Position numbers and translations under genes: made by a program. A stretch of 38,975 bases of DNA from an uncultured Gammaproteobacteria bacterium (GTDB taxonomy: Bacteria > Patescibacteriota > Patescibacteriia > Patescibacteriales > Patescibacteriaceae). Of this stretch, positions 38 to 30,497 are shown in pieces. The notes below the pieces were generated by a model. That model saw nothing but the letters and a program-made list of their open reading frames with translations. It did no database searches and was not told where the DNA came from. The stretch covers positions 1-38,975 of the forward strand of contig CAYNWZ010000001.1 in NCBI GenBank assembly GCA_964401085.1. Direction: 5' to 3'. The stretch's first letter is position 1. Each line of letters starts with the position of its first letter.

Positions 38-44
38 ACGTTCG

Positions 45-131
45 CGGAGGAGAAGGGATTCGAACCCTTGATGCCATTGCTGGCATAGTGCTTTTCGAGA
101 GCACCCGATTCAACCACTCTCGCACTCCTCC
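45..131 (-). tRNA. tRNA-Ser (anticodon CGA), long variable arm
   Basis: The reverse complement reads GGAGGAG..GTGCT CTCGAAA AGCAC..long variable arm TATGCCAGCAATGGCATC..AAGGG TTCGAAT CCCTT..CTCCTCC G. Acceptor, anticodon and T arms all pair. CCA is not encoded. Confidence 0.9.
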
Positions 132-138
132 CAATTAT

Positions 139-876
139 TTAAGCCCTTCTATTCTGGGCTAACTGTTTTAATCTGTCAATCTCGTTTTTGGTCAATTTGC
201 GGCAAGCGCCAATTGGTAATTTACCCAATTCCAAACCGGCTAAAGCGCTCCGTTTCAAATCAACCACCTCATAGCCGGCCGCCTTCATTAGCAAACGAAT
301 CTGCCGCTTTTGCCCTTGCCGTAAAATTATCTCCAGCCGATCACTGGCTAACTGTTCGCCCACCTGAGCTGTGGCTAAAGCCTGATCGTCATAAAGACGA
401 CGGCCTTTGGTCAAAAATTCTTTAAGCTTTTCCAAATCTCGACTAGACAAGCCCGGACGAATAACTACTTCATAGGTTTTTGGATGAGCAAAGCGCGGAT
501 GGGTCAATTTCTCGGTTAAATCGCCATCATTAGTTAACAGAACCAGGCCACGGCTATCTTTATCCAGACGGCCAACGACAAAAAGACGGCCGGAATAATC
601 AATTAATTCAAAAATATTGTGTTCGCCCTTGAAACGGCGATTGGTGCAAGTATAATCGACCGGCTTATTAAGCATAAAATAAACCAACGGCTCGTCTTGA
701 CTAGCAACTGGCCGGCCGTCAACCATAATCACTGTCTGATTAGAACCAATAGTTTGGCCTAATTGGGCTATCTGCCCATCGACCATTACTCGGCCGTCTC
801 TAATCAAGGCTTCGGCTCGGCGCCGCGACCATGGTCCATGGCTAGCTAAATATTTAGTCAACGGCTGGCTAATCAT
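139..876 (-). CDS. RsuA/RluB-family rRNA pseudouridine synthase (S4 domain plus catalytic domain)
   Basis: The 245-aa ORF has an N-terminal S4-like RNA-binding region (SRRRAEALIRDGRVMVDG) and the catalytic motif GRLDKDSRGLVLLTNDG typical of the RsuA/RluB/RluE family. It overlaps the stop of the upstream gene by 8 nt. Confidence 0.85.
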   Translation of the reverse strand: MISQPLTKYLASHGPWSRRRAEALIRDGRVMVDGQIAQLGQTIGSNQTVIMVDGRPVASQDEPLVYFMLNKPVDYTCTNRRFKGEHNIFELIDYSGRLFVVGRLDKDSRGLVLLTNDGDLTEKLTHPRFAHPKTYEVVIRPGLSSRDLEKLKEFLTKGRRLYDDQALATAQVGEQLASDRLEIILRQGQKRQIRLLMKAAGYEVVDLKRSALAGLELGKLPIGACRKLTKNEIDRLKQLAQNRRA

Positions 877-2230
877 GGTCTAACTTATTTTTACTCAAAC
901 CCTCTTTAACCCAGATGGTCATGGCTAAACCCAGCCAGAACAAAACCGCTAAATCATTCTTAAAATAAGGCACATCCACTAAGCCGTGGACAACCGTGGA
1001 CAGCCAAGCGCCCAATAGTCCCCAACTCAACCAGGCTAAATTATTCTGGCGGCGATAGCGCCAAAAATTAAAAAAATTAATCACAACAGCCTTAAACCAC
1101 AACCAGATAAAAATTATTAAGCCAACTAAACCCAATTCACTCCAAAAATTCAAGATAAGATTATGCGGATAAAGATAAATCTCCAATGGTTGCCAGCTTG
1201 GCTTCGCTTTCTTATTAGCTGATTTTATCCAGATTCCTTCATGATGATAAGGCTCAATTGTTTTCTGGTAATTCGCTAATCCGGCTCCAGTCAGCCAACG
1301 ACCGTCACCCAGCATTTGCCAAGTTTCCTGCCATTGCGATTGGCGAATCTGACCGGATAAATCAGCGAGGCGGACTTTCTGCCCAATGATCGCCTGATAA
1401 TCCGGCCGCTGCCAGATTATTAACCCAGCCGCCATTATTACTGCCGCCACAGCTAAACGACTCCAACGATTAGCTAGTAGACCCAGAGCAATCATGGCCG
1501 CCGCTAGACCGATCAGCGCTCCTTCGCTTTTGGCCCAATAAATGGCCAACCAACCGACAATAATACTGCTGGCCAGTAATAGATTGGCCCAATTAAACCA
1601 GTTTTTAACTGTTTTAAGCCGATAAACCAGATAACCCAGCACGGCCAGGATAACTGGCCCGGCAAATAAACCAATGGCGTTAGGATAACCAAAAACCGAG
1701 GTAGCCCGTCTGGTAGCGGCGGCGGCCCAAAACGGATTAGCAATCAGATGGCCGGTTAAATATTGGTAGCCAGCCAATAGACTAATTAACAATAAGCTGC
1801 TGGCCAAAAACAAATAACTGAAACTTATATATTTTGTTCCACGCGGAACATTCCAAAAGAGAATAAAAACTAAGATTGGCTCAATAAAATAGGCCTTCCA
1901 CAAACCCAGAGCGCTAGCGGTTGAGCCACCAATTATCAGCGCCAGCCAAGCCACCAATAACACAACAATCATCTCAATAGTCAATGGGTAGGCTCGCCAA
2001 TTCTTCGCCCGAGAGCGTAAATTAGCCCATGGTTGCGGATATTGTTTAATTAGCCAGACAGCGGTGGTCAGCAATATAAGCTCCTCTAAAACCGTCATCG
2101 GCAGCGGCCCGATTTTAAAACGCAATAGATAGGTCGGCAATAATCCGACTAATAGGCTAACAGTTAGCGGCCAATTGCGCCAAGCTAGTAGTGACCAAAA
2201 AATAGCAACCAATAAGGCGACTAGCCACAT
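869..2230 (-). CDS. O-antigen ligase / Wzy_C-family polytopic membrane protein
   Basis: The 453-aa ORF has about 10-12 hydrophobic helices, a large loop, and the family-type signature H-N-x-x-L-x-x-x-x-E-x-G-x-x-G (YPHNLILNFWSELGLVG). Confidence 0.65.
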   Translation of the reverse strand: MWLVALLVAIFWSLLAWRNWPLTVSLLVGLLPTYLLRFKIGPLPMTVLEELILLTTAVWLIKQYPQPWANLRSRAKNWRAYPLTIEMIVVLLVAWLALIIGGSTASALGLWKAYFIEPILVFILFWNVPRGTKYISFSYLFLASSLLLISLLAGYQYLTGHLIANPFWAAAATRRATSVFGYPNAIGLFAGPVILAVLGYLVYRLKTVKNWFNWANLLLASSIIVGWLAIYWAKSEGALIGLAAAMIALGLLANRWSRLAVAAVIMAAGLIIWQRPDYQAIIGQKVRLADLSGQIRQSQWQETWQMLGDGRWLTGAGLANYQKTIEPYHHEGIWIKSANKKAKPSWQPLEIYLYPHNLILNFWSELGLVGLIIFIWLWFKAVVINFFNFWRYRRQNNLAWLSWGLLGAWLSTVVHGLVDVPYFKNDLAVLFWLGLAMTIWVKEGLSKNKLDHD

Positions 2231-2231
2231 A

Positions 2232-2726
2232 TTATTTATCTAATTGCTGTAAGTTTTTTAATTCCCAAGTGTTATTTAAGGGGTCATAGAGCGCAAAAGT
2301 CGCTGGATAATAAACTCCACCTAGGGTTCCGGGGTTAACTCGCCAAATATTATCGCGTTGCTCTTGCCACGGCTTATGGGTGTGGCCATAAAAGAGAACA
2401 TCAACCGGCCCCTCGGCCAAAACAATGTCTTGATATTCCGGCTCATGACAAATGCCAATCGTTCGTCCTTCAATCTCTAGTTGGCCATAGCGGCCCAAAT
2501 TGTGAAAATCAGGCCGGGCCGGGATAGCGTCTGGAGCATAGCTATCGGCATTACCTTGAACGAAATAGAGTTGGCCTGGCCATAGAGACGCTAACTGCTG
2601 AAAAATGTCGCTATTGGTCAAATCTCCGCAAAAAACCGCCTGCTGGATACCTTGCGATTGGCACCATTTAGCCCAAAGCTGCAAATTAACTAAATTATCG
2701 TGAAGATCACTACAAACTGCCAGCAT
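2232..2726 (-). CDS. YfcE/MJ0936-family metallophosphoesterase
   Basis: The 164-aa ORF carries the calcineurin-like motif series: D-x-H (SDLHDN), GD (FCGDL), GNAD, H (ICHEPE) and GHTH. Confidence 0.8.
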   Translation of the reverse strand: MLAVCSDLHDNLVNLQLWAKWCQSQGIQQAVFCGDLTNSDIFQQLASLWPGQLYFVQGNADSYAPDAIPARPDFHNLGRYGQLEIEGRTIGICHEPEYQDIVLAEGPVDVLFYGHTHKPWQEQRDNIWRVNPGTLGGVYYPATFALYDPLNNTWELKNLQQLDK

Positions 2727-2727: not shown

Positions 2728-5700
2728 CTAATTGGCCACGCGCCAAATTTCGTCTAGGCTGGTCTCGCCATTGGCGGCTTTCAATAGGCCGTCGTGAGTC
2801 ATTAATAACGCCCCCTGGCTAATGGCTAATTGTTCTATTTCGGCATCGGTGGTCAGTGGCTGTTGAATCAACTTTTGTAATTCCGGGGTCATCACAATAA
2901 CTTCGTAAATACCAACCCGCCCCTTATAGCCAATACCGCGGCATTCCGGACAACCAACTGGGCCATAGAATTGTGGCTGATCAGGTAATTTTAGCTCAGG
3001 TCTAGTTCTTAATAACTGCCAGAATGGCTCAATCTGCGCCTGCATCTCTGGAGAAACGCTAATGGCTTGCTTACATTTAGGACACAACCGCCGCGCTAAA
3101 CGTTGGCCGATAGAACACTCTAGGGCACTGGCTAGCATAGTTCGTTCCACACCTAGACCGGCAAAACGAGCAATAGCGCCGGCCGCGCTATTGGCATGAA
3201 TCGTGGATAACACCAAATGACCGGTTAAACTAGCTTCAATAGCTGTTTTGGCAGTCTCATCGTCGCGGATTTCTCCAACCATAATAATATTCGGGTTCTG
3301 CCGCATTAGCGATCTCAGGGCAGCGGCAAAAGTATAGCCGCCAGCCGTATCAATCTGGGTCTGCATCAAGCCGTCCAAATGATATTCAATCGGATCTTCA
3401 ATGGTAATTATCTTTATTTCTGGATTATTAAGCTGCTTTAACAATGCGTAAAGAGTTGTTGTTTTACCAGAACCGGTCGGACCAGTGGTAATGATAATGC
3501 CCTTGGTTTTATGAATTGATTTTTCAATAGCCGCCAATACAGCATCACGGATACCTAAATCAGCTAAATCCAAGCTGATAGCCTGATTAGACAATAGTCT
3601 AATAACCACTGTCTCGCCATAACCGCCGGTAATTAAAGAAACGCGGCAATCCATCCGTTCGTCCGGCAGATCCATGCCAAAGCGACCGTCAAAAGTCGGC
3701 TGTTTAACACTCAACGACAAACCGACTAAATTCTTAATCTCACCAATCAGCGGCACATAGTGCTCTGAACCCAAAGTCACAATATCGTGCAAAATACCAT
3801 CCAGACGATAACGAATCTTAACCCCGCCCTCAATCGGGTCAATATGGACATCGGCCGCCTTGCTAACAATGGCGCCAGCCATGACAGCGGCCAACATTTC
3901 GCTGGTTGGCTTATTGGCCAATAATTTCTCAGCGCCAACAATGTCTTGGGTCACCTGCTCGCCAAATTGTAGATCTTCCTTAGAAATTTTAAGACCACGG
4001 CCCAGGGTTTGGGAAACGACAATATCATATAATTCATCAATATAATCGGTCTTGCCAATCACCCGCAGCACTTCATCAAATGAGGTTTGGCCATCTAAAA
4101 CTTTTAAGACACCATCCTGCAGCATCGTTACCATACCGTCTTCAATGGCTTGGCGCATAATCTTAAATGATGGCACACCGTCGGCAATTAAACCTTTCAT
4201 CGCTTCGCTCATGGTAAAAATTTCATAGATACCAATCCGCCCTTTATAGCCAAAACCGGAGCATTCTAAACAGCCATCGCCAGCTTCATAAAGCGTCGGT
4301 AATTCTTTGGGCACATCAATATTAGCTTTCGGCGAAATAACCGCTAAAATCTTGTTAATTTGTTGCTTCTCATCTTCACTGAGCTGATGAACGCGGCGGC
4401 AATGCGGACACAATTTGCGCACCAGGCGTTGACCCATAATAGCGTTAATCGCTGGAACTAATTGGTATGGCTGAACCCCCAAATCAACCAGCCGCGGCAA
4501 CACCCCGGCCGCGTCGTTGGTGTGTAAAGTGGAAAAGACTAAATGACCGGTTAAACTGGCCTGAACGGCAATCTCGGCAGTATCTAAATCACGGACCTCA
4601 CCAATCATAACGATATTCGGATCTTGCCGCAAAATTGATTTTAGGCCGTTGGCAAAAGTATAACCGCTTTTTTCATCAACCTGGCTCTGATTAATTCCCT
4701 GAAGCTCATATTCGATTGGATCTTCCAGGGTAATAATCTTAACTCCCGGTTGATTGAGCTTATTCAAAACGGCATAAAGCGTTGTTGTTTTACCAGACCC
4801 CGTTGGCCCAGTGGTTAAAACTAAGCCATTAGGTTTAGCCATTTCGTTTTCCAGGGTCTGCCGAACTTCTGGCCGCATCCCTAAGCTGTCTAGCGGTAAA
4901 ACCGCTGATTTCGGCCGTAATAAGCGCATAACCACACTCTCACCATAGGCGGTTGGCAAAAACGAACTGCGCACTGCCACTTTTTCATCAGGCAAAAAGA
5001 TGTCAAAACGACCATCTTGTGGCTTATTCTCAACGTTTAATTTAACCCGAGCAACAACCTTGAGTCGGGACAATACCTTTTTCCATTGCTGACGAGGAAT
5101 GGTAGCTACCGGCTGCAATAAGCCATCAACCCGCAAGCGAACAATAACCGCCGTTTCTTCGGCTTCAATATGAATATCGCTACTTTCAGCCCGCAAAGCC
5201 GCGGCAATCACTAATGTCAGTATTTGACTGATGTTGGCTTCTTTCAACTTATTGTTCAACAGATTCATCTCACTGAGTTCGGCTTGATAACGAGCCAACT
5301 CTTCCGGGTTAATCTCTACCCCCTCTAAGCGGTTAATCTTCGGTAAAGTATCATAAATCTTGTGAGCATATTCCAAACTGCGCTGAGAAATCAAATACAG
5401 CTTGGCCTTAAGGTGGTGATTGGTCGACAATTCAGCTATCTTGGCCGTTAAAATCTCACTAGGTTGAGTCGTTCCGATACGAATATTATTCTTTTCATAA
5501 TAAAAGCAAACAGCCGCTAAGGCAACAGCATCGTCTTTACTCAACAAACTAATCGCTTCCGGGCTAATTGGAAAATCTAATAAATTGATGTAAGCCAAGC
5601 CTGAAGACTGCGCTTGGGCCGCCACCTGATCTTCAATCGCCTGATAGCGTAAATCGGATTGGCGCTTAGTCAGCTGGGCCGCTGGCGAATCTTTGCTTGC

Positions 5701-5754
5701 CAACACCTTATCATTAAGCAGGTCTTCAATGGAAAGATTGTTATCTTCAACCAT
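2728..5754 (-). CDS. Tandem-duplicated PilB/GspE-family secretion ATPase (two complete ATPase modules in one polypeptide)
   Basis: The 1008-aa ORF repeats every family motif once per module. Walker A: GPTGSGKTTTLYA at aa 316 and aa 758. Asp box: ITLEDPIEY and ITIEDPIEY. Walker B: IVMIGEVRD and IIMVGEIRD. His box: TGHLVFSTLHTND and TGHLVLSTIHANS. Tetracysteine: CPHC..CLEC and CPKC..CPEC. The first ~135 aa look like a T2SSE_N-type N-terminal domain. Confidence 0.9.
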   Translation of the reverse strand: MVEDNNLSIEDLLNDKVLASKDSPAAQLTKRQSDLRYQAIEDQVAAQAQSSGLAYINLLDFPISPEAISLLSKDDAVALAAVCFYYEKNNIRIGTTQPSEILTAKIAELSTNHHLKAKLYLISQRSLEYAHKIYDTLPKINRLEGVEINPEELARYQAELSEMNLLNNKLKEANISQILTLVIAAALRAESSDIHIEAEETAVIVRLRVDGLLQPVATIPRQQWKKVLSRLKVVARVKLNVENKPQDGRFDIFLPDEKVAVRSSFLPTAYGESVVMRLLRPKSAVLPLDSLGMRPEVRQTLENEMAKPNGLVLTTGPTGSGKTTTLYAVLNKLNQPGVKIITLEDPIEYELQGINQSQVDEKSGYTFANGLKSILRQDPNIVMIGEVRDLDTAEIAVQASLTGHLVFSTLHTNDAAGVLPRLVDLGVQPYQLVPAINAIMGQRLVRKLCPHCRRVHQLSEDEKQQINKILAVISPKANIDVPKELPTLYEAGDGCLECSGFGYKGRIGIYEIFTMSEAMKGLIADGVPSFKIMRQAIEDGMVTMLQDGVLKVLDGQTSFDEVLRVIGKTDYIDELYDIVVSQTLGRGLKISKEDLQFGEQVTQDIVGAEKLLANKPTSEMLAAVMAGAIVSKAADVHIDPIEGGVKIRYRLDGILHDIVTLGSEHYVPLIGEIKNLVGLSLSVKQPTFDGRFGMDLPDERMDCRVSLITGGYGETVVIRLLSNQAISLDLADLGIRDAVLAAIEKSIHKTKGIIITTGPTGSGKTTTLYALLKQLNNPEIKIITIEDPIEYHLDGLMQTQIDTAGGYTFAAALRSLMRQNPNIIMVGEIRDDETAKTAIEASLTGHLVLSTIHANSAAGAIARFAGLGVERTMLASALECSIGQRLARRLCPKCKQAISVSPEMQAQIEPFWQLLRTRPELKLPDQPQFYGPVGCPECRGIGYKGRVGIYEVIVMTPELQKLIQQPLTTDAEIEQLAISQGALLMTHDGLLKAANGETSLDEIWRVAN

Positions 5755-5758: not shown

Positions 5759-7471
5759 TTAATTTATTTGACTGCGGCGTTCTTTAACATAGTTGGTCCA
5801 ATCTTCGGCCATATCGACAAAAAACTTGAATGGCGTTTCAATAATAAAATCTAATAAGAATACAAAAACATTGACTTTATCAAATTTCTCACTCAGCCAC
5901 TTGCCAACTGCCATCACTGGTAAAGTAAAAACATCAAACAAAATCAACCACAAACTCTCTTTGTCTTCAGTAATTCTTAGCTCATTAGTCACCCGCTTGA
6001 TACGAATTATGAAAAAACTGACAAAAACTAAGAAGAACAAGAAAATAATAATACTGATGAGGGTAAAATGCAGAGCGTGCAGCGCCCAGATGATAGCGCT
6101 AAAGGTTATCAAAAAAGTAAAAGAGTAGATAACATTAAAGATCTTCGTCAATATGTTGGCCTTTTTCTGAGATAATCGAACGGCAATCGGTGTTTGACGA
6201 CGATTTTCTTCAAAAGACAGCTCATTAACCAAACCGATTATCTTATCCGTGTTAGATTCGTTGGGTAACTTGGTAATCAACACTGAGAAGAATAAAAGGG
6301 CCGCCGGAAAAGCGGCGTTAATTAGTAGAGCTCCCCAGCTAACCGGCGCGCCGAATATCTTATTGGCTGGAATCTCTAAGGCGATTACCAAAACCGTTTT
6401 GGTTAAAAAGATATAAATAATACTACGAACAGCCGCCCGCCACAATAAACTTTTGGCCCTGGTATAATTTTTCTCACAAACTTTTTTAATCTGCCGCGGA
6501 AAAGCTTTTGGGTCAGTTTTAATACTAGTATAAATACCGACCGGATCGGCTCGTAACACATCTAACAGCACCGAGGTAGAAACGGCGTAGCGCCTAGTTA
6601 GCTTATCTAATGGTCCAGCTAGTGGGTGGTGGAGCTGTTGGTTAATGGCCTGACGAATTTCCTGAATTTTCTTGGCAACAGCCGGCCAGCGGCTGGCCTC
6701 CATTTTTTGCCAATCGGCTAAATAATATTTAAACAAAATAAAGGCCAGCATGTCATTGTCCAGCTTGGCAAAATTACGATTAACCGAAAGATAAATTTGA
6801 ATTGGCAAATCGGCCGATAATTCTGGATGGTTGGCTAGTTCAATATTATCTAATAAATACTGGTACAAATTATTAATGGCTTGATTTAGGGGTTGATCAT
6901 TGCCCAGTCGACTCTCGATTTCGCTGGCAGCCACGGCCAGTAGCCAGGCCACCAACTCATTGCGTTGCGACAACTCTTCTTTAAACTTAACCAAATCCTT
7001 TTTTATTAAGCTGGCCGATCCGGACAATTGACCCAACTGAGCAACAGCAATATCTTTAATAACCAAATACTTCTTAATAATAGCCGCTACCTCATCAATC
7101 AAACTGGTCGGCAAATGATTGTTCGGCAAATAGCCGCCGCGAATCAATTCAGCCAATAGATGCTGGCTGATTTTTTCATGATCATTGTCGGTTATCGTGC
7201 CCTCAATCAATATTTGGCGCCGCAAAATCCGCTCAATCGCCTCTTTGCGCAGCAAATATTCTTCTTTATAGTCAACGGCGTTGCGAATCTTTTCATAAAA
7301 AAAAGACATCCGCGAAATCACGCTGGATACCTTGATTCTTGGCTGATCTCCTTTGGCTCCGCCTGAGCTATGTTGAGCGTGATAAATAGCCTGCAACAAT
7401 TTCTTGGTGCTATCATTAACCGTTAAGACAGCGGCTGGATGTTCGTGAATTTTTGGATTTAACATAAACAA
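5759..7471 (-). CDS. Uncharacterised 570-aa membrane protein (about 340-aa soluble helical N-terminus, about 5-6 C-terminal TM helices)
   Basis: Long ORF ending 4 nt before the ATPase start. Hydrophobic segments cluster from about aa 345 to 540. I recognise no family motif, and it is not PilC/GspF-like. Confidence 0.6.
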   Translation of the reverse strand: MFMLNPKIHEHPAAVLTVNDSTKKLLQAIYHAQHSSGGAKGDQPRIKVSSVISRMSFFYEKIRNAVDYKEEYLLRKEAIERILRRQILIEGTITDNDHEKISQHLLAELIRGGYLPNNHLPTSLIDEVAAIIKKYLVIKDIAVAQLGQLSGSASLIKKDLVKFKEELSQRNELVAWLLAVAASEIESRLGNDQPLNQAINNLYQYLLDNIELANHPELSADLPIQIYLSVNRNFAKLDNDMLAFILFKYYLADWQKMEASRWPAVAKKIQEIRQAINQQLHHPLAGPLDKLTRRYAVSTSVLLDVLRADPVGIYTSIKTDPKAFPRQIKKVCEKNYTRAKSLLWRAAVRSIIYIFLTKTVLVIALEIPANKIFGAPVSWGALLINAAFPAALLFFSVLITKLPNESNTDKIIGLVNELSFEENRRQTPIAVRLSQKKANILTKIFNVIYSFTFLITFSAIIWALHALHFTLISIIIFLFFLVFVSFFIIRIKRVTNELRITEDKESLWLILFDVFTLPVMAVGKWLSEKFDKVNVFVFLLDFIIETPFKFFVDMAEDWTNYVKERRSQIN

Positions 7472-7544
7472 TCTTATACCATTAAGAATAGCGGAAAGAG
7501 CCCTTAAAGTAAAGGCTGAGCTAGGATGATAAAGCTGTTAGCGG

Positions 7545-7618
7545 TGGACCTTAAGGGATTCGAACCCTTGACCTCCTGCATGCAAAGCAGGCGCTCTAGC
7601 CAACTGAGCTAAAGGCCC
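7545..7618 (-). tRNA. tRNA-Ala (anticodon TGC)
   Basis: The reverse complement reads GGGCCTT TA GCTC AGTTGGCTA GAGC G CCTGC TTTGCAT GCAGG AGGTC AAGGG TTCGAAT CCCTT AAGGTCC A, including the G3:U70 Ala identity pair. Confidence 0.9.
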
Positions 7619-9381: not shown

Positions 9382-9457
9382 GGTCACGTCGCCAAGAGGC
9401 TAAGGCAACGGTTTGCAAAACCGTCATTCGTGGGTTCGACTCCCACCGTGACCTCCA
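9382..9457 (+). tRNA. tRNA-Cys (anticodon GCA), CCA encoded
   Basis: GGTCACG..ACGGT TTGCAAA ACCGT..GTGGG TTCGACT CCCAC CGTGACC T CCA. Confidence 0.9.
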
Positions 9458-9475
9458 TTAGCTCCGACCAATTCC

Positions 9476-9484
9476 TGTGGATAA
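9476..9484. promoter_or_regulatory. Perfect-consensus DnaA box (TGTGGATAA, the reverse complement of TTATCCACA)
   Basis: 9/9 match to the E. coli-type DnaA box consensus. It is part of a 14-bp string, GTGGATAACTTGTG, repeated exactly at 10284. Confidence 0.5.
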
Positions 9485-9628
9485 CTTGTGAATCTTGCTC
9501 AGCTTTGGTCTATAACTCTCTAGACAAACGCTCCAATTCAGACCTAATCTCAAATGTCTACAGTTAAGTAGACAGCCCGCAATTATTGGTGATTACAAGA
9601 ATAGTCCACACAACTCTACCCTAAACTC

Positions 9629-9657
9629 TTGACGACTTTTTCTTTTTTTGCTATACT
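9629..9657 (+). promoter_or_regulatory. Strong sigma70-like promoter with no protein gene downstream
   Basis: TTGACG (9629-9634), 17-nt T-rich spacer, TATACT (9652-9657). Confidence 0.6.
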
Positions 9658-9663
9658 GTGGAT

Positions 9664-9884
9664 ATCGTTCTTTTTAGACCTCTTCTCTGGTCTCTCCTAA
9701 AAAACAAAAATAAAAAAATTGGACCCAGTGTTTCTATAAAAGAAACCGCAAGGTTCCCTGAGACCGGTTAAGAATATAGTTCTTGAAATTTTTGCAAAAA
9801 ATTTCAAGGGGAAGGCCGTCGGAGCTATTTTCTATTATTACTTTATGTAAATTGAAGGGCTCGTCTGTGGCCTTCCTTTTGTTT
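9664..9884 (+). ncRNA. Candidate structured small RNA of about 220 nt, class unassigned
   Basis: It is bounded by the 9629 promoter and a terminator-like hairpin (ggaaggcc 9810-9817 pairing with ggccttcc 9869-9876, then TTTTGTTT). Internal hairpins are agacc/ggtct, gtttct/agaaac and a perfect 12-bp stem, cttgaaattttt/aaaaatttcaag (9782-9808). There is no ATG-initiated ORF. Confidence 0.4.
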
Positions 9885-9897
9885 ATAAAACTCCGGC

Positions 9898-9926
9898 TTG
9901 ACGATTCGTTTTTTTTTACCTACAAT
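9898..9926 (+). promoter_or_regulatory. Sigma70-like promoter for the tRNA-Arg/tRNA-Ala unit
   Basis: TTGACG (9898-9903), 17-nt T-rich spacer, TACAAT (9921-9926), 29 nt upstream of the tRNA-Arg 5' end. Confidence 0.55.
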
Positions 9927-9955
9927 AATCAGCGTCAACTTGTTTCCCGAGGACA

Positions 9956-10027
9956 GCCCTCATAGTTCAATGGATAGAACAAGGGACTCCTAAGCCCTAG
10001 ATCCGTGTTCGACTCATGGTGGGGGCA
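9956..10027 (+). tRNA. tRNA-Arg (anticodon CCT)
   Basis: GCCCTCA TA GTTC AATGGATA GAAC..loop CTCCTAA..CCGTG TTCGACT CATGG TGGGGGC A. The acceptor stem has one G-U pair, and the anticodon stem has one A-G mismatch at its last pair. Confidence 0.8.
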
Positions 10028-10051
10028 CAGGAATAATAATTAAATATTTAT

Positions 10052-10128
10052 GGGCCATTAGCTCAGTTGGCTAGAGCGCTTCCATGGCATGGAAGAGGTC
10101 AAGGGTTCAAGTCCCTTATGGTCCACCA
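10052..10128 (+). tRNA. tRNA-Ala (anticodon GGC), CCA encoded
   Basis: GGGCCAT TA GCTC AGTTGGCTA GAGC G CTTCC ATGGCAT GGAAG AGGTC AAGGG TTCAAGT CCCTT ATGGTCC A CCA. Confidence 0.9.
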
Positions 10129-10357: not shown

Positions 10358-10714
10358 ATGCTAAACCATAACCAGCTTTGGGGAACCTATGGCGAGGATT
10401 TATCCAGCGCTTATCTGTTGCGCCAAGGCTACCAAATAATCGCCCGCAATTGGCGTTGCCACCACCACGAAATTGATCTAATCGCTCAAAATCAAACCAT
10501 GCTAATACTGGTTGAGGTTAAATTGCGGTTAGTTAATAATTTCGCTCCGGCGGTCGATGCTTTAAATTGGCGTAAGCTCAAACAATTAAAACGAGCGGCT
10601 AGTTACGCTTTGTATTTTTATCATCCTAAAGACTGGCGCTACGACTTTATTGCCATCGACCTTAACCCTAGAAATCACTTGGCTCGACTCTGTCATTATC
10701 GTCAGATTCTATGA
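10358..10714 (+). CDS. yraN: YraN-family (UPF0102) endonuclease-like protein
   Basis: The 118-aa ORF shows the family pattern G(E/D)..A..YL...G..I...N.R....EIDLIA......LVEVK. Its ATGA stop/start overlaps dprA. Confidence 0.8.
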   Translation: MLNHNQLWGTYGEDLSSAYLLRQGYQIIARNWRCHHHEIDLIAQNQTMLILVEVKLRLVNNFAPAVDALNWRKLKQLKRAASYALYFYHPKDWRYDFIAIDLNPRNHLARLCHYRQIL

Positions 10715-11598
10715 ATTTTTTAGCCACCAGCCAACCGCCAATCAGGCGGGTTGAAAATAATCAAGCGGATTTCCCTAAACTGCTAAACAATATTTACCAT
10801 CCGGTAAAACAACTTTGGTATCGCGGCAACCTCGCCCTAGCCAGTCAAAGCAATCTTTTGGCCGTTGTTGGCAGCCGCCGATCCAGTTGGTATGGCCAAT
10901 TAATTATTAACCGCCTGCTTGATCGCCATATTGCCAACCAGATAGTAATTATCAGTGGACTGGCCGTGGGGATTGACAGCTTGGCTCATCAGGCCAGTCT
11001 AAATTCTCACAATCCAACTATTGCCGTCCTCGGTAGTGGTCTTGATCCAGACAGTCTTTACCCGCCCAGTAATTGGCAGTTGGCTGAAGAAATCGTCAAT
11101 AGCGGCGGTCTCTTGTTGTCGGAATACCCACCGGGTCAATCGGCGCGTAATTACCATTTTCCCCAAAGAAATCGGATTATCGCCGGGTTGTCGGCAGCTG
11201 TTCTAGTAATTGAAGCCGCCGCCAAATCTGGTGCTTTGATCACGGCTGAACTAGCCCTACAAGAGGGGCGAACAGTCTTGGCGGTTCCAGGCAATATTAA
11301 CCAACCCCTATCAGCGGGCACTAATCAATTGATTCAACTCGGCGCCCAGGCAATTCTCAGCTCGACCGACTTAGCAATTGCGCTTGACTTGCCCCAATCA
11401 ACTTCTTATAGTAAAACTGATCTACCGATTACTGATTGCCACTCGGTTTTATTAAAGCTATTAATAAAGCCGCTGAGTTTAGACGAGTTACTCCAAATTA
11501 CTAATCAATCGGTTAGCCAAATTAGTCAACAGCTTACCGACCTTGAATTAGACGGACACATAAAACAACAGGCCGACCAAACTTATGTCGCCTGCTAG
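10711..11598 (+). CDS. dprA: DNA-processing protein DprA (Smf)
   Basis: The 295-aa ORF has a Rossmann-like DprA core (VVGSRRSS.YG, ISGLAVGIDSLAHQASL, FPQRNRIIAGLS, VLVIEAAAKSGALITA) plus a C-terminal winged-helix-like tail. Confidence 0.85.
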   Translation: MNFLATSQPPIRRVENNQADFPKLLNNIYHPVKQLWYRGNLALASQSNLLAVVGSRRSSWYGQLIINRLLDRHIANQIVIISGLAVGIDSLAHQASLNSHNPTIAVLGSGLDPDSLYPPSNWQLAEEIVNSGGLLLSEYPPGQSARNYHFPQRNRIIAGLSAAVLVIEAAAKSGALITAELALQEGRTVLAVPGNINQPLSAGTNQLIQLGAQAILSSTDLAIALDLPQSTSYSKTDLPITDCHSVLLKLLIKPLSLDELLQITNQSVSQISQQLTDLELDGHIKQQADQTYVAC

Positions 11599-22109: not shown

Positions 22110-22160
22110 GGCGGCAGAATAAATTTTAATTCTTAGCCCTTGTTGGTTAAAACAAATTTT

Positions 22161-22553
22161 ATGAATCAAATTAAAAAGTTTCTGTTCGGATTGTTGGCAC
22201 TCCAATGCCTCGCTCTAAGTCCAGTCGCCATTGCTCCAGTTAGAGCAGATGTTGATTTATGGGGTGGCAACAATATCGCCAACAACGCTTTCAACAGTAT
22301 CGGTTTCAGCAGAAAAGACCCGCGAGAAATTGTGGCCAATATTATTAAGATCTTGCTAGGCTTTCTCGGGACCATTGCTGTTGTTTTGATTATCTATGCC
22401 GGCTTTTTGTGGATGACGGCGGCTGGCAAGCCCGACAACACCAAAAAAGCCAAAGACATAATGTCGGCGGCAGTGACTGGCTTGGTGATTATTTTAATAT
22501 CTTACGGTATTACGGTATTTGTTACCAATGCCTTAAGTAACGCTATTCAATAA
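22161..22553 (+). CDS. TrbC/VirB2-like small pilin-family membrane protein, paralog 1
   Basis: Signal peptide (..LSPVAIAPVRA|D), a variable region, then two hydrophobic helices flanking the loop FLWMTAAGKPDNTKKAKD. The ATG at 22161 is preferred to the TTG start in the track. Confidence 0.6.
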   Translation: MNQIKKFLFGLLALQCLALSPVAIAPVRADVDLWGGNNIANNAFNSIGFSRKDPREIVANIIKILLGFLGTIAVVLIIYAGFLWMTAAGKPDNTKKAKDIMSAAVTGLVIILISYGITVFVTNALSNAIQ

Positions 22554-22587
22554 AAATTAATTAACTATTAATAAGGTTAAGAAACTT

Positions 22588-22977
22588 ATGAAAAAACTTT
22601 TTGTCGGCTTAATGTCTTTAGTCTGGGCCGCCAGCTTACTGTCTTTAGCTCCAGCCGCTAGCCAGGCTCAAAGCATGAACGCCAATGACTTATGGGGAAA
22701 TGGCACGGTTAGCACTTATCAGAATCAGGGCTTTTCCACCACTGATCCTCGTCAAACAGTTGCCAAGATCATCAAAGTGGCTCTTGGTTTTTTGGGATCA
22801 ATCGCCGTTATCTTAATCGTCCTAGCTGGCTTCAAATGGATGACCGCGGCTGGCAACGAAGATAAAATTGCTGAATCCAAGAAATTAATGGCCGCCGCCT
22901 TTGTCGGTTTGGTTATTATCTTAACTGCCTTTGCTCTAACCAATTTCGTTATTAATTCGGTTATCTCCACTATCTAG
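22588..22977 (+). CDS. TrbC/VirB2-like pilin-family protein, paralog 2
   Basis: Signal peptide (..APAASQA|Q). The same DLWG..F(S)..DPR...A.IIK..LGFLG.IAV..I..AGF.WMTAAG core as paralog 1. Confidence 0.6.
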   Translation: MKKLFVGLMSLVWAASLLSLAPAASQAQSMNANDLWGNGTVSTYQNQGFSTTDPRQTVAKIIKVALGFLGSIAVILIVLAGFKWMTAAGNEDKIAESKKLMAAAFVGLVIILTAFALTNFVINSVISTI

Positions 22978-22986
22978 CGATAGCTT

Positions 22987-23050
22987 AATTCGCCAAATTA
23001 TCTTGGCGAATTTTGTCTCAACCCAAATATTTTGGATTGAGACAAAATTT
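22987..23050 (+). terminator. Two consecutive hairpins (attenuator/terminator-like) splitting the pilin array into 2+4 genes
   Basis: Hairpin A is aattcgccaa/ttggcgaatt (10 bp, loop attatc) followed by TTTT. Hairpin B is ttttgtctcaa/ttgagacaaaa (11 bp) followed by TTTCTT. Confidence 0.5.
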
Positions 23051-23064
23051 CTTAAACAAACTCC

Positions 23065-23424
23065 ATGTCTAGACAGTTGACAATTATTCAGCGGGCAACC
23101 TATCTGCTTGGTTTTTATTTTCTACCAATAATTGCTCGAGCCGACAACTTTGGGCTAGATCAGGCTGCAGGCAGCGCTGGACTAAAAAGTAGCAGCACCC
23201 TGGCAGAAAAATCAGGCCAAATTATTGGTTCTCTCTTAAGTCTAGTTGGCGTCATCTTTTTGGTCTTAATGATTTATGGTGGAATCACTTGGATGACGGC
23301 TAGCGGCAATGATAAGCAGGTAGATAAAGCTAAAAATATTATTACTTATGCCATCATAGGCTTGGTGATAATCCTATCAGCCTATACTATTACCGCCTTT
23401 TTGGGCGGGACATTGGCCCGATAA
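23065..23424 (+). CDS. TrbC/VirB2-like pilin-family protein, paralog 3
   Basis: N-terminal hydrophobic leader, then LSLVGVIFLVLMIYGGITWMTASGNDKQVDKAKNII and a second helix. Confidence 0.6.
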   Translation: MSRQLTIIQRATYLLGFYFLPIIARADNFGLDQAAGSAGLKSSSTLAEKSGQIIGSLLSLVGVIFLVLMIYGGITWMTASGNDKQVDKAKNIITYAIIGLVIILSAYTITAFLGGTLAR

Positions 23425-23425
23425 T

Positions 23426-23836
23426 ATGTTTTGGCAAAGCAAAACAAAACTATTAATTACTTCCGTAGCCCTACTGTTAACGCCAGGTCTTAGAGTTAAG
23501 GCGCAATCTAATAGCGCCACCGAGGCCACCAATGCTTTTGGTTATTTTTTTGGCGGTGCCCAGAAAACAGCTAACCAGATGGGGTATGTGGCCAGCACCA
23601 CCGATGGCACCAGCCTGCTGCTTCTCCAGGCCGCGGCCATAGTTAGTTTTATTTTAAGCCTAGTTGGCGTCATCTTTTTGGTCTTAATGATTTATGGTGG
23701 AATCACTTGGATGACGGCTAGCGGTAATGATAAGCAGGTGGAAAAAGCCAAGGGGACTATCAGTCGCGCGGCCATTGGCTTAATTATAGTTATTCTGGCC
23801 TATGCTATTACTTTTTTTGTTGTTAACCGAATATAA
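23426..23836 (+). CDS. TrbC/VirB2-like pilin-family protein, paralog 4
   Basis: Signal peptide (..LRVKA|Q). The core LSLVGVIFLVLMIYGGITWMTASGNDKQVEKAK shares 65 identical consecutive nucleotides with paralog 3. Confidence 0.6.
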   Translation: MFWQSKTKLLITSVALLLTPGLRVKAQSNSATEATNAFGYFFGGAQKTANQMGYVASTTDGTSLLLLQAAAIVSFILSLVGVIFLVLMIYGGITWMTASGNDKQVEKAKGTISRAAIGLIIVILAYAITFFVVNRI

Positions 23837-23838
23837 TT

Positions 23839-24147
23839 ATGCCAGCTAATCTACAAAACGCCTTTTCCGGAGACAGTTTGAACCAAACCGCAGTAGCTGC
23901 CGGCTATAATCCAGCTCAAAATAACGCCCTAACAACTATTGGTAATTTTATAACCATTATTCTTGGGTTGATTGGTGTTATTTTTTTAGCTCTAATAATT
24001 TATGGCGGTTTTTTGTGGATGACGGCTAGCGGCAATGATAAGCAGGTAGATAAAGCCAAAGCCATTATTGGTCAAGCAACCGTCGGTCTTGTAATTATAA
24101 TCCTGGCCTATTCTATAACCTTTTTTATTATTAAAATTCTTCCATAA
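23839..24147 (+). CDS. TrbC/VirB2-like pilin-family protein, paralog 5 (no obvious signal peptide)
   Basis: 102 aa starting with a polar stretch (MPANLQNAFSGDSLNQ..), followed directly by the two-helix core FLWMTASGNDKQVDKAK. Confidence 0.55.
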   Translation: MPANLQNAFSGDSLNQTAVAAGYNPAQNNALTTIGNFITIILGLIGVIFLALIIYGGFLWMTASGNDKQVDKAKAIIGQATVGLVIIILAYSITFFIIKILP

Positions 24148-24151
24148 CCCT

Positions 24152-24559
24152 ATGTCAAAAACAAATATCTTGGCAACAAGACTGATTTCTTTAATAATAA
24201 TGGCTGTCGGCTTGATAAATATTCCCCTGGCGCAAGCCGTGCCAGCAGAAACATTGACCAACCTTAGAACGGTGGCATCACCGAGTTATCAAGCCCCAAC
24301 CGATGAAAACACTTTGTTTAACAACATATCGTCTATAATAAAGCTGGTCCTGGAATTACTGGGTTTCATTTTTGTTATTTTAATGATTTATGCTGGCATT
24401 CTGTGGATGACGGCCGGTGGCAATGAAAAACAAGTAGAAAAAGCCAAAAACATTATCAGCCGAGCGGCCATTGGTTTGATCATTGTGGTCTCAGCTTACG
24501 CGATAACTTATTTTATCTTTACTAATTTACCGGGCGGAGGCGGAGCTGGACCAGCTTAA
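24152..24559 (+). CDS. TrbC/VirB2-like pilin-family protein, paralog 6 (Gly-rich C-tail)
   Basis: Signal peptide (..IPLAQA|V), core ILWMTAGGNEKQVEKAKNII, and C-terminal LPGGGGAGPA. Confidence 0.6.
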   Translation: MSKTNILATRLISLIIMAVGLINIPLAQAVPAETLTNLRTVASPSYQAPTDENTLFNNISSIIKLVLELLGFIFVILMIYAGILWMTAGGNEKQVEKAKNIISRAAIGLIIVVSAYAITYFIFTNLPGGGGAGPA

Positions 24560-27668: not shown

Positions 27669-28805
27669 TTATTTGCGCAGCGGCACAATAATATATTGAT
27701 AATTATCGTCTTTAGGGACGCTGATTTGACAGGCGGCGACATCGTCAATTAATTTAATTATCACCTGGCCAGTCGATAAAATATTTAAGCACTCCAAAAG
27801 ATAGCGATAATTCAAGCGCACGCTATTATTTTGGCCGTCAATTTTGGCCGTCAATTCAGCTTGCTGACTGCCGGTTTGTCCCGCCACCGCCTCAATAATA
27901 ATTTTTTGCTCAAGACTATTAACAGTTATATCAATAGCATTGGTCGTATTAGCACTAAAAATAGAGGCCATTTTAATGGCTCGCGATAATTCGCCGCGAT
28001 CAACAATGGCTTCCGTCTTAAAATTAACTGGCAGAACCTGCTCATAGTCAGGGTAATGACCCTCGATTAATCTAGAAACGATAGTTGTTCCTTGATAGAC
28101 AAACATTGCTTGATTGTCAGATAGGAATAATTTTAATTGATCGGCATCTCCAGATAATTCATCGGTCGAAGAATTAATAATCCGTGAAATTTCCTGCATT
28201 GTCTTAAATGGTATAATCACCTTTAACCCATCAGCGCCAACTTGTCCGGACTCTAAAGAGAAATCTAACTCGGTCTTGGCTAAACGAAAACTATCGGTTG
28301 CTACTAAATTCATTGCCTTACCCTTAATATCAAATAAGACGCCGGTTAATTCTAGGCGATTATCACCAGGATTAATTGCAAACAATATTTGGCTAAGCGC
28401 ATTTTTTAGACTGGTAACTGACAAATTAAAGCCAATTTTTTTATCAACCTGAGGAATAACTGGAAAATCTTGTGCTTCCTGCCCCTTGATGACCGTATTA
28501 TATTGTTGGCAATTAATTTTTAATTCCTTTTTATCTAAAGATATATCTATTTTTTCGTTTGGCAACAGGGCAATATAGTCGCTTAATATTTTAGCATCAA
28601 CAGTGATCTCACCATCTTTATCGGCTTTACCTCTAATTTGTTTTGTGATGCCTATCTCCAAATTGGTTGCTGATAAATTGATTAAACCATCTTTAATACT
28701 AATCAAAACATTATTAAGTATCGGCATGCCGGCATTCTTAGTGGCGATATGTCCAACGGTGGTTAATCCTTGGTGGAGATTTTTTTGTAGGATGGTTAGT
28801 TTCAT
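27669..28805 (-). CDS. dnaN: DNA polymerase III beta sliding clamp
   Basis: 378 aa. The N-terminus MKLTILQKNLHQGL..V..I....A..PILNNVLI and the three-domain length fit DnaN, and it lies immediately downstream of dnaA. Confidence 0.9.
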   Translation of the reverse strand: MKLTILQKNLHQGLTTVGHIATKNAGMPILNNVLISIKDGLINLSATNLEIGITKQIRGKADKDGEITVDAKILSDYIALLPNEKIDISLDKKELKINCQQYNTVIKGQEAQDFPVIPQVDKKIGFNLSVTSLKNALSQILFAINPGDNRLELTGVLFDIKGKAMNLVATDSFRLAKTELDFSLESGQVGADGLKVIIPFKTMQEISRIINSSTDELSGDADQLKLFLSDNQAMFVYQGTTIVSRLIEGHYPDYEQVLPVNFKTEAIVDRGELSRAIKMASIFSANTTNAIDITVNSLEQKIIIEAVAGQTGSQQAELTAKIDGQNNSVRLNYRYLLECLNILSTGQVIIKLIDDVAACQISVPKDDNYQYIIVPLRK

Positions 28806-29012
28806 ATTAATTTATAATATATAAATAAAGAGATAATAATATAGTTTGGGTAAAAGTTGATAACCTGTTTTTGTTTTAAACTTTGGCTAAAAAATAAACT
28901 GGCTGTTTGGGGATAAAAATTTAATAAAAAGTTAATGGTTGGTGGATAAAAAAAATATTTATTGCTTGGCTGTGGATTAAGCATTGTTTTCCACAACAAT
29001 TTCTTTGTCATG
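28806..29012. other. Candidate oriC: AT-rich unwinding tract plus a cluster of DnaA boxes in the dnaA-dnaN spacer
   Basis: The AT-rich stretch at 28806-28850 is attaatttataatatataaataaagagataataatatag. The 8/9 boxes are TGGGGATAA (28908), GGTGGATAA (28941), TGTGGATTA (28971) and, in the opposite orientation, TTTTCCACA (28987). There is also a 7/9 box at 28856. Confidence 0.55.
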
Positions 29013-30401
29013 TTAATAAGTTGAAGTAATCGCTTGGGTAATTTGGTCTATGTCTTGTTTTAATTGGTTGTTGGTTTTTAGGTCGGCCTCAATTTTGGTG
29101 CAAGCATACATAGCGGTGGTGTGATCGCGTCCGCCTAGTTCTTGGCCGATGGCCGGGAATGAGGCATTAACTTTGGTACGTAGTAAATACATAGCAATTT
29201 GGCGCGGACCAACTAACTCTTTTTTGCGACTTTGGCCAGTTAATTCAGCGACGTTAATATTATAAAAATTGGCGACCGCTTCTAATATTTTTTGTGGAGT
29301 GGATAGATTGCTAGTCTGAATGGAGGTAAAAAATTCTTTTAGTACTTGTTGAGCAACGGCGATGTCGGGAGAGCAATTATGAAATTGGCAGAAACCCATA
29401 ATCCGATTGAGAGCACCCTCTAGTTCCCGGACATTATTGTTGATGTTAGTGGCAATATATTGAATTATGGATTGATCTAGGGAAAATTGTTTTTGTTGAC
29501 ATTTGGTATTTAAGATAGCCATTCTGGTTTCTAGGTCCGGTTGACTGATGTCGGCCACCATACCCCACTCAAAACGGGTAATTAACCGAGCTTCTACTGC
29601 TTTCATGCTGCGTGGCGGTCGGTCCGAAGTAATAACTATTTGTTTATTGGCACGATGCAGTTGATCAAAGGTATGAAAAAACTCTTGCTGGGTGCCGTCT
29701 TTGCCGGCCATGAACTGGATATCATCGATTAGCAGCAGATCAACGTTACGGTATAGGCTTTTAAAAGTGTTGCCGCGGCCATGATAAACAGCTTCAACAT
29801 AATCATTGGTAAATTTTTCTGAGGTCACATAGAGGACTTTTTTGCCAGACTTAATTAATTCATGGCCAATTGCTTGTAGGAGGTGGGTTTTGCCCAGGCC
29901 GACTCCGCCATAAATAAAAAGTGGATTGTAGGTTTCGCCGGGTTGACGCACCGCTGCCCAGCAGGCAGCATGAGCCAATTCATTATGCTTGCCAATCACA
30001 AAGGTTTCAAAAGTATAACGCGGATTTAGTCCAGCCGACAAACAGGCTTGCTGATCAGCGGTTGGTTTGATGTCGACTATGGGTTCTGTTGGTTGTTTAT
30101 CTTCAGTGACTAAAAAATTGTTAGTTGGCGTGGCGTGTTGCGGTTTAAGTTTTATAATATACTTAATTTCTGTTGGTTTCTTGCCGGTAATCTTATTGAA
30201 TATATGGACAATTTCTTGACTGAATTTAGTTTCAAACCAGGCCCGGGTAAAGCCATTGGGAACGCCGATGGTTAAAACATCTTCTTCATAGCTAGAGATA
30301 AAGGAGTTTTTAAACCAAGTGATGAAATTGGCTTTAGAGATAGTTAATTCGGCTTCGCCTAAAATAGCTTGCCAGATTTGTTCTAAGGAGGGGTGTTCCA
30401 T
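29013..30401 (-). CDS. dnaA: Chromosomal replication initiator protein DnaA
   Basis: 462 aa with Walker A GGVGLGKTHLL, Walker B LLLIDDIQF, sensor motifs, and the C-terminal DNA-binding helix-turn-helix (..GGRDHTTAMYA..). Confidence 0.95.
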   Translation of the reverse strand: MEHPSLEQIWQAILGEAELTISKANFITWFKNSFISSYEEDVLTIGVPNGFTRAWFETKFSQEIVHIFNKITGKKPTEIKYIIKLKPQHATPTNNFLVTEDKQPTEPIVDIKPTADQQACLSAGLNPRYTFETFVIGKHNELAHAACWAAVRQPGETYNPLFIYGGVGLGKTHLLQAIGHELIKSGKKVLYVTSEKFTNDYVEAVYHGRGNTFKSLYRNVDLLLIDDIQFMAGKDGTQQEFFHTFDQLHRANKQIVITSDRPPRSMKAVEARLITRFEWGMVADISQPDLETRMAILNTKCQQKQFSLDQSIIQYIATNINNNVRELEGALNRIMGFCQFHNCSPDIAVAQQVLKEFFTSIQTSNLSTPQKILEAVANFYNINVAELTGQSRKKELVGPRQIAMYLLRTKVNASFPAIGQELGGRDHTTAMYACTKIEADLKTNNQLKQDIDQITQAITSTY

Positions 30402-30488
30402 AATATTTAGATTAGCGGCTTGATTTTATTATAACAGGCTTGGTTTTTTCGGCAACCCAAAAATAAGTTAATAAGTTTGTTAATAACC

Positions 30489-30497
30489 TGTGGACAA
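30489..30497. promoter_or_regulatory. DnaA box (TGTGGACAA, 8/9) in the dnaA/rpmH divergent control region
   Basis: A single near-consensus box 88 nt upstream of the dnaA start, plausibly autoregulatory. Confidence 0.4.

Follow-up and report, generated by a model that had tools for sequence, protein, structure and literature searches.

Two PilB-type modules in one chain

We analyzed a 38,975-nucleotide (nt) stretch of DNA (contig CAYNWZ010000001.1 of GenBank assembly GCA_964401085.1), here called the window, and in particular one gene in it that encodes two PilB/GspE-type ATPase modules head-to-tail in a single chain. The gene lies at positions 2728 to 5754 of the minus strand, starts with ATG and encodes 1,008 amino acids (aa) plus a stop codon, as translated from the window. 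The call is supported by the open reading frame (ORF), by two stretches of similarity to the T2SSE family and by orthologs of equal length. A first-pass annotation of the same DNA had placed an ORF at these coordinates. The ORF is real, but its strand is minus, as the plus-strand reading of the interval is riddled with stops.

The chain is laid out as a putative N1 domain (N1D), a first module (A) composed of an N2 domain (N2D) and a C-terminal ATPase domain (CTD), a connector, and a second N2D-CTD module (B), all read from the minus strand. The N1D region is present as a single copy (aa 1 to 127; 5374 to 5754). It is followed by connector A (aa 128 to 170; 5245 to 5373), which joins it to the first N2D and pairs with connector B in an internal repeat. 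The module A core (aa 171 to 566; 4057 to 5244) was identified with a module hidden Markov model (HMM) and with the Pfam match at aa 171 to 564. The inter-module connector (connector B; aa 567 to 612; 3919 to 4056) is homologous to connector A in the internal alignment and is conserved across the family. The module B core (aa 613 to 1008; 2731 to 3918) closes the chain with a second match to the module HMM, which finds two full copies in the tandem ATPase. The N1D assignment draws on a weak match to MshEN (20.6 bits at aa 52 to 126, under the cutoff of 23.1), on alignments of the full-length PilB model TIGR02538 from aa 43 and of PDB PilB chains from aa 48, and on the predicted fold. The T2SSE_N-like N-terminal domain proposed in the first-pass annotation stays under the threshold of its own Pfam model, whereas full-length PilB sequences align with most of this region.

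The existence of two modules is clear from both domain scans and self-comparison. Pfam T2SSE (PF00437) matched in two stretches with 762.9 bits, against a cutoff of 24.9, and the better stretch (aa 171 to 564) covered profile positions 4 to 370 of 370. The NCBIfam models for GspE, PilB, TfpB and ComGA each matched in two stretches as well, in line with the two domain hits that had been suggested as a check. Scores of 874 and 842 bits from NCBIfam "equivalog" models, among which TIGR02538 and TIGR02533 stand for PilB/GspE-type ATPases, pass their cutoffs only as sums of two stretches and are therefore no proof of equivalence, and the weak AAA matches in the Pfam scan are matches to the Walker A motifs. 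Within the protein, aa 128 to 565 align with aa 570 to 1006 at 40% identity (E = 1e-119), a similarity far above chance; as a whole, modules A and B share 53% nucleotide identity. The earlier proposal of two complete PilB/GspE modules in one ORF is borne out by these two T2SSE stretches and by the repeat.

Both modules also retain the motifs of the motor. The Walker A sequence GPTGSGKT, located by a regular-expression search, occurs at aa 316 to 323 in module A (4786 to 4809) and at aa 758 to 765 in module B (3460 to 3483), a spacing of exactly 442 aa, as had been reported. It is invariant in 27 family members, as are the Asp box, the atypical Walker B motif (GE.RD) and the His box of both modules. 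The same holds for the Zn-binding tetracysteine, formed by the CxxC pairs at 449/495 in module A and 891/935 in module B (C449, C452, C495, C498, C891, C894, C935 and C938). With all five elements kept in both halves, neither module looks degenerate, in agreement with the first-pass annotation. A similarity of the two Walker A regions at the nucleotide level, claimed in the same annotation, was 14 of 35 positions at the coordinates given there and about 24 of 29 when the regions were placed in register by eye. As the likeness arises because the same peptide (TTGPTGSGKT) is encoded, it adds no information.

For a finer comparison, we mapped functional residues of PilB through HMMER alignments to PDB chains, taking into account a 20-residue tag offset. 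In the Geobacter metallireducens PilB, these residues are R257, R271, R286, T327, E357, D398/E400, T411, H413, H420 and R455, of which the three first arginines sense the nucleotide, T327 belongs to Walker A, E357 is the Mg-binding residue of the Asp box, and D398 and E400 are pore residues (McCallum et al.; PMC5424180). Their equivalents are R249, R262, R277, T318, E348, D389/D391, T402, H404, H411 and R446 in module A and R691, R704, R719, T760, E790, D831/E833, T844, H846, H853 and R888 in module B. All mapped residues except position 391 are invariant in the 27 family members. Both modules are complete, with every residue that is known in PilB for binding or sensing ATP. Module A scored 322 bits against the G. 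metallireducens PilB and module B 283 to 289 bits against PilB chains. In the PDB sequence search, PilB, GspE and PilF reached 304 to 332 bits and PilT chains 114 to 123 bits. This lower similarity to PilT and the tetracysteine motif in both modules speak against a PilT/PilU retraction ATPase, a type of about 350 aa that has neither an N1D nor this motif. By every sequence criterion tested, each module qualifies as a bona fide PilB/GspE-type ATPase.

Both modules are under strong purifying selection. Relative to the 95%-identical ortholog in L094, module A had a ratio of nonsynonymous to synonymous substitution rates (dN/dS) of 0.016, module B one of 0.011 and the connector one of 0.055. Across the ortholog comparisons, the values for the two modules were 0.01 to 0.04. 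Because dS was saturated, these ratios are qualitative, but dN was far under dS throughout. When we looked for alignment columns fixed to different residues in the two modules across the family, a single one emerged (G370 versus A812), which gives no clear signal of specialization. Module B was somewhat less conserved, with 81 columns conserved at ≥90% compared with 100 in module A, and its mean distance was larger (0.48 versus 0.39). The faster evolution of module B could be taken to mean that only one module works as a motor and that the other has become a regulatory or structural pseudo-subunit, as in the F1/V1 ATPases. Such decay of one module is seen in distant tandem relatives: module B of P0121 is without Zn cysteines, and in module A of P0134 the sequence GSGTTT replaces the Walker A lysine motif. 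We nevertheless consider a pseudo-subunit improbable for the window protein, given that both of its modules, and those of the family, keep every catalytic and sensor residue, that both have low dN/dS values and that a single column separates them.

The AlphaFold2 (AF2) monomer model, with a mean predicted local distance difference test (pLDDT) score of 79.8, contained two PilB-like N2D-CTD units and an alpha/beta domain in the N-terminal region (pLDDT around 80). Low-confidence segments lay at aa 137 to 143 in connector A and aa 577 to 585 in the inter-module connector, which is predicted to form helices. Each module matched PilB/PilF cores in Foldseek, with TM-scores normalized to the target of 0.87 to 0.93 at 38 to 42% identity. 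Neither this structure search nor the PDB sequence search returned a solved chain covering both modules. The solved PilB and PilF proteins (G. metallireducens 5TSG/5TSH/6OLJ, G. sulfurreducens 5ZFR, and T. thermophilus PilF 5IT5/5OIU) share with the tandem chain the N2D-CTD fold, the motifs, the sensor residues and, putatively, an N1D at the N terminus. They differ from it in having one ATPase module in about 570 aa, whereas the tandem chain has 1,008 aa and one N1D per two modules. PilF, at about 890 aa, is long through extra N-terminal domains and not through a second ATPase. The tandem chain thus departs from the one-module-per-chain build of about 450 to 600 aa.

The gene neighborhood in the window

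The tandem gene is part of a tight minus-strand string that consists of a tRNA-Ala gene, a gene for a 570-aa membrane protein, the tandem ATPase, a metallophosphoesterase, a Wzy_C protein, an RluF-like pseudouridine synthase and a tRNA-Ser gene. The 570-aa protein is encoded at 5759 to 7471 (minus strand), 4 nt upstream of the ATPase start. It has no Pfam or NCBIfam match and is predicted to begin with about 345 aa of soluble sequence and to have at least 4 hydrophobic segments. A protein of 74% identity occupies the same position in L003, and we found no similarity between the 570-aa protein and the membrane protein family encoded upstream of the ATPase in the sister clade (L001, L004 and L006). 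The 570-aa protein is a possible partner of the tandem ATPase.

Downstream, 1 nt after the ATPase stop, lies a YfcE-like metallophosphoesterase gene (2232 to 2726, minus strand; Pfam Metallophos_2, TIGR00040). It also adjoins the ATPase gene in L003 and L094, and in four further loci it comes after a Translin gene (L001, 13601 to 14098; L004, 13616 to 14122; L006, 13601 to 14098; and L088, 1744 to 2220). Phosphoesterases recur beside the ATPase, as a YfcE-like gene 3′ of it in two clades whose neighborhoods otherwise differ and as a DHH-like gene 5′ of it in distant members. The next gene encodes an O-antigen-ligase-like membrane protein (869 to 2230, minus strand; Pfam Wzy_C, 61 bits), and L003 and L094 have it at this place too. 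Pilin O-oligosaccharyltransferases, such as PilO/TfpO and PglL, belong to the Wzy_C family, so the protein could conceivably be connected with filament glycosylation.

The window as a whole comes from the chromosome of an ultrasmall, Falkowbacteria-related member of the Patescibacteria and lies close to oriC, with the markers dnaA, dnaN, rnpA, yidC, infB, nusA, topA and dprA, a class A penicillin-binding protein gene and six T4SS_pilin genes. In the origin region (27669 to 33072), dnaN and dnaA are minus-strand genes and rnpA and yidC are plus-strand genes; the cumulative GC skew is lowest near 26 to 28 kb. The six pilin genes are consecutive (22140 to 24559, plus strand), encode proteins of 102 to 137 aa and all match PF18895 (T4SS_pilin, TrbC/VirB2-like). 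They are pilins of the type IV secretion type and not type IV pilus pilins. All Rfam matches were tRNAs. The window has five tRNA genes: Ala-TGC (7543 to 7618, minus strand) directly upstream of the 570-aa protein gene, Ser-CGA (44 to 131, minus strand) as the last member of the string, and a plus-strand cluster of Cys-GCA, Arg-CCT and Ala-GGC (9382 to 10128). A DprA gene and a UPF0102 gene follow this cluster (10358 to 11598).

Distribution and origin of the tandem gene

To see how widespread the architecture is, we searched 5.8 billion proteins and obtained at least 120 clusters (at 90% identity) of full-length tandem proteins. The best 120 were all 992 to 1,015 aa long, with query coverage of 95 to 100%; one was 95% identical to the window protein, four were 79 to 81% identical, and the others were 57 to 60% identical. 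They came from NCBI, ENA, JGI and Logan assemblies, and the carriers with a name were Falkowbacteria, Parcubacteria or "Patescibacteria group." With the more distant tandem proteins included, every named carrier belongs to the Patescibacteria (Falkowbacteria, Parcubacteria and Moraniibacteriota). Existing annotations of these proteins read only "GspE/PulE family protein" or "PilB." The fused length therefore recurs in related assemblies, and the rarity implied by the first-pass annotation was overstated. We also searched 1.84 billion cluster representatives exhaustively with HMMER and, at E ≤ 1e-30, obtained 15,716 relatives, of which about 14 were full-length tandem proteins at 38 to 58% identity; the more distant representatives, about 13, were 38 to 45% identical. 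One of the tandem clusters holds KKU82539.1, a protein from a GW2011 Parcubacteria genome that entered GenBank around 2015 with the label "General secretory pathway protein E." Three shorter matches in the same search were fragments. A 390-aa protein (P0144) was considered as a free-standing module B and rejected, since it is cut by the end of its contig and has the usual Translin-Metallophos neighbors. In a profile survey of species genomes, the matches listed spanned many phyla and were mostly single-module PilBs, with L013 as the only tandem locus among them.

This distribution bears directly on whether the gene is an artefact, i.e., two adjacent pilB genes fused by misassembly or by a sequencing frameshift. 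The window protein is without an independent exact duplicate in the contig index, which is the only point we found in favor of an artefact. However, the same uninterrupted length is found at 95%, 81% and 57 to 60% identity in the NCBI, ENA, JGI and Logan assemblies, and no adjacent pilB-pilB pair occurred in any locus that we saw from the candidate phyla radiation (CPR). The orthologs in L094 (95% identity) and L003 (81%) have the same gene length and no indels, and neither is split into separate genes by a stop or frameshift at the junction, the outcome named earlier as refuting a fusion. With independent assemblies, equal-length orthologs and a junction under purifying selection, misassembly or a junction frameshift is excluded.

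Full-text literature searches and key papers on CPR bacteria and type IV filaments contained no description of a tandem PilB. The architecture is thus common in databases, yet uncharacterized. The first-pass annotation had asked whether such fusions were already common and characterized and knew of no characterized example; at least 120 tandem proteins make them common, and we found neither a paper nor a solved structure. The tandem PilB is best described as a conserved, undescribed variant of a known motor, neither rare nor categorically new.

The gene neighborhoods of the relatives place the family outside the pilus operons. In the clade of 57 to 60% identity (L001, L004 and L006), a polytopic membrane protein of 325 to 335 aa is followed by the tandem ATPase, Translin and the metallophosphoesterase. 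More distant tandem members (L013 from Moraniibacteriota, L090 and L091) have PolA and TsaE on one side, pointing away, and then a DHH-like gene, the tandem ATPase and RuvB in a row, sometimes continued by bPH_2, YebC and RuvC. One flank of this pattern was seen in each of two further loci (TsaE and PolA upstream in L089; RuvB downstream in L093). The same TsaE/DHH/RuvB locus contains a single-module gene in L010 (Doudnabacteria), L011, L016 (Giovannonibacteria), L022 (Minisyncoccia), L029 (a Saccharibacteria-labeled metagenome-assembled genome [MAG]) and L031 (Nealsonbacteria). Adjacent pilT or pilC was never seen at the TsaE/DHH/RuvB loci, whether tandem (L013, L090 and L091) or single-module (L010, L011, L016, L022, L029 and L031). 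In the Falkowbacteria loci L008 and L009, a single-module ATPase beside TsaE is preceded by the same polytopic membrane family as in L001, L004 and L006. This family (L001, 9017 to 9997; L004, 8985 to 9992; L006, 9020 to 9997; L008, 6975 to 7979; and L009, 349 to 1608) comprises proteins of 325 to 419 aa with 24 to 58% mutual identity and no Pfam or NCBIfam match, encoded 3 to 8 nt upstream of the tandem ATPase and 3 to 6 nt upstream of the single-module ATPase. The idea that its members are divergent PilC proteins was rejected (hhalign probability, 0.2%).

We built neighbor-joining (NJ) trees with bootstraps from modules A, modules B and single-module relatives. The canonical CPR pilus operons, which contain pilM/N/O-like genes, pilB, pilT, pilC and pilins, formed a separate branch, and the tandem gene, unlike the canonical CPR pilB, is not encoded with pilT, pilC or pilM. 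Module A of the window clade was sister to the single-module CPR proteins of L008 to L010; across the trees, the single-module orphans (L008 to L011, L016, L022, L029 and L031), which differ in having one module in 546 to 590 aa, were nearest to module A; they share their locus with tandem genes of other lineages. Module B was monophyletic in 98 of 100 bootstraps in the first tree and in 135 of 200 after distant representatives were added. For the main family, A and B were never sister groups, but the subclades of A matched those of B. Judged from these trees and loci, the tandem family lies inside a CPR-specific "orphan" PilB paralog outside the pilB-pilT-pilC operon, a paralog that seems not to be singled out in the key papers on CPR bacteria and type IV filaments. 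This orphan setting and the single-module form of the paralog go beyond the first-pass annotation.

The internal repeat starts directly after the N-terminal domain, and module B has a homologue of connector A but no N1D. Because of this, an internal duplication of the post-N1 segment within the CPR orphan paralog is the likely origin of the tandem gene. In the scenario that we propose, the ancestral gene would have resided in a TsaE, (DHH), PilB-like, RuvB locus and undergone one old internal duplication. The halves would then have codiverged, with module B evolving faster, and the single module of some lineages would be either primitive or the result of loss. Thereafter, the tandem gene would have been inherited vertically as a core gene. 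Vertical inheritance is indicated by the parallel identity series of TopA (94, 86, 81, 73 and, in Falkowbacteria, about 60%) and the ATPase (95, 81, 80, 79 and about 58%). The nearest named relatives of the window TopA, at about 60% identity, are Falkowbacteria.

Two members deviate from the separate clustering of A and B. In P0126 (L089, 3226 to 6213) and P0128 (L093, 8001 to 10985), modules A and B share 74% and 54% identity, respectively, and cluster with each other in 200 of 200 bootstraps. Independent fusions were rejected as the simplest reading for these proteins, which have the usual synteny of the family and an A/B identity that is patchy, reaching up to 88% at the nucleotide level in core windows. 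This pattern suggests homogenization between the modules, i.e., gene conversion within the gene. P0134 (L092, 8001 to 11144; 1,047 aa), from a planctomycete-like MAG, likewise has two T2SSE modules in one chain, which are each other's closest relatives (189 of 200 bootstraps). It differs from the tandem family in a PilC/GspF-like T2SSF domain at the N terminus and in the GSGTTT sequence of its first module, found in place of GSGKT. It is a clearly independent tandem fusion outside the CPR, with one apparently inactive module.

Assembly and role of the tandem chain

The PilB ring has been likened to "six beads on a string." Each N2D in it packs rigidly on the CTD of the neighboring chain, ATP is clamped between the units, and two opposite sites fire together to turn and push PilC, in a cycle modeled for a C2-symmetric homohexamer (PMC5424180). 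Applied to the tandem protein, this scheme makes a trimer of chains (A3B3) the most likely assembly. Three chains would form one ABABAB ring of six modules with six active ATP sites, each within a module. Of the two N2D-CTD contacts, one would come to lie within the chain, and the ring would be closed by three noncovalent interfaces only and docked by three N1 domains only. The covalent link may stabilize an otherwise weakly associated hexamer and would build a two-subunit repeat into the rotary cycle. Like PilB, the ring would drive the membrane platform of a type IV filament, such as a pilus or competence pilus.

A covalent device that promotes hexamers of a PilB/GspE-type ATPase has an artificial counterpart in the GspE-Hcp1 fusions (PDB 4KSR and 4KSS), which were made for that purpose and in which the partner is an unrelated ring protein instead of a second ATPase module. 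GspE reportedly needed this engineered Hcp1 fusion to form hexamers, in work by Lu et al. from 2013. Duplicated RecA/ASCE-type ATPase subunits also alternate in the α3β3 ring of F1/V1, and tandem ATPase domains form two tiers in KaiC, ClpB and p97. These are conceptual analogues of assembly only. They belong to different superfamily branches, and the two-tier ATPases have no sequence relationship to the tandem chain beyond the P-loop. F1/V1 also has separate chains, one of them noncatalytic, whereas the modules of the tandem PilB are covalently joined and both look catalytic.

The precedent of tandem domains in other ring ATPases, which usually give stacked rings, raises the possibility that six chains build separate A and B hexamers, stacked or side by side, with 12 modules in total. 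The connector of about 46 residues, with its low-confidence segment at aa 577 to 585, is long enough for two rings, and the monomer model leaves the arrangement of the domains undefined. We regard this arrangement as rather doubtful. The N1 docking domain is present in module A only, and there is no two-tier ATPase of the PilT/VirB11 type among solved structures. In addition, the packing of N2D(n) on CTD(n+1) in PilB rings favors neighboring modules in one ring (PMC5424180).

Several observations weigh against an alternating ring that drives a pilus. The predicted template modeling (pTM) score of the AF2 monomer was 0.46, so the model does not define where the modules lie relative to each other. 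A C2 cycle would be only pseudosymmetric, because each A in an ABABAB ring would face a B. The support for module B monophyly falls to 68% with distant members, and the deep NJ branches are short. Finally, pilC, pilM, pilT, T2SSF and a prepilin motif are absent from the 39-kb window, and no pilC, pilM, pilT or prepilin gene was found beside the tandem genes in L001, L003, L004, L006, L089 to L091 and L093. As an operon with PilC/GspF, PilM/GspL and pilins is seen neither in the window nor at the examined tandem loci, and no type IV pilus genes lie nearby, the link to a pilus is by homology only. On the question of symmetry, the physiological state of pilus motors is still debated, and a C3 "OCOCOC"-type state has been seen for PilT (PDB 6OJY) (PMC6858323). 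By analogy, such a state would fit an ABABAB ring naturally.

The absence of type IV pilus genes leaves room for an alternating ring ATPase with a non-pilus, PilC-independent role, which would work with the upstream membrane protein in another membrane process, for example DNA uptake or export or cell-to-cell transfer. In the sister clade and in the Falkowbacteria loci, the gene upstream is tightly coupled to the ATPase gene and belongs to one family unrelated to PilC. The ancestral locus lies amid DNA repair genes (PolA, RuvB, RuvC and the DHH protein), and DprA is encoded 5 kb away in the window. However, the 570-aa protein of the window is unlike that membrane family, small CPR genomes may keep gene order without a functional link, and both sequence and fold are nearest to PilB and PilF, the ATPases of pilus extension. 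Moreover, the genes for type IVa pili are often scattered across genomes (PMC6668835). We therefore see a non-pilus role as unlikely, although it is the strongest of the competing explanations. Somewhat less likely still is a more specific version in which an obligate A3B3 hetero-ring with a non-PilC upstream partner forms a separate CPR nanomachine, for example for DNA uptake or for transfer to or from the host cell. In that version, the built-in two-subunit repeat would force a three-fold, and not a two-fold, rotary cycle on a PilB-type motor.

Taken together, duplication within the orphan paralog, followed by assembly into an A3B3 alternating ring that drives a type IV filament platform, seems the best overall explanation, with a probability that we put slightly above even (about 0.55). 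The tandem chain is a strongly conserved natural protein in which every second site of the ring could be mutated independently, and it offers a test of whether a PilB-type ring still works as a motor when it has a two-subunit repeat and is docked by three N1 domains only. It may also provide hexamers that hold together well enough for structural studies. Type IV pili have a central part in the episymbiotic life of Patescibacteria (PMC6744442 and PMC12206443), and the tandem gene marks a widespread lineage of pilus-type ATPase paralogs in these bacteria that resides outside their pilus operons.

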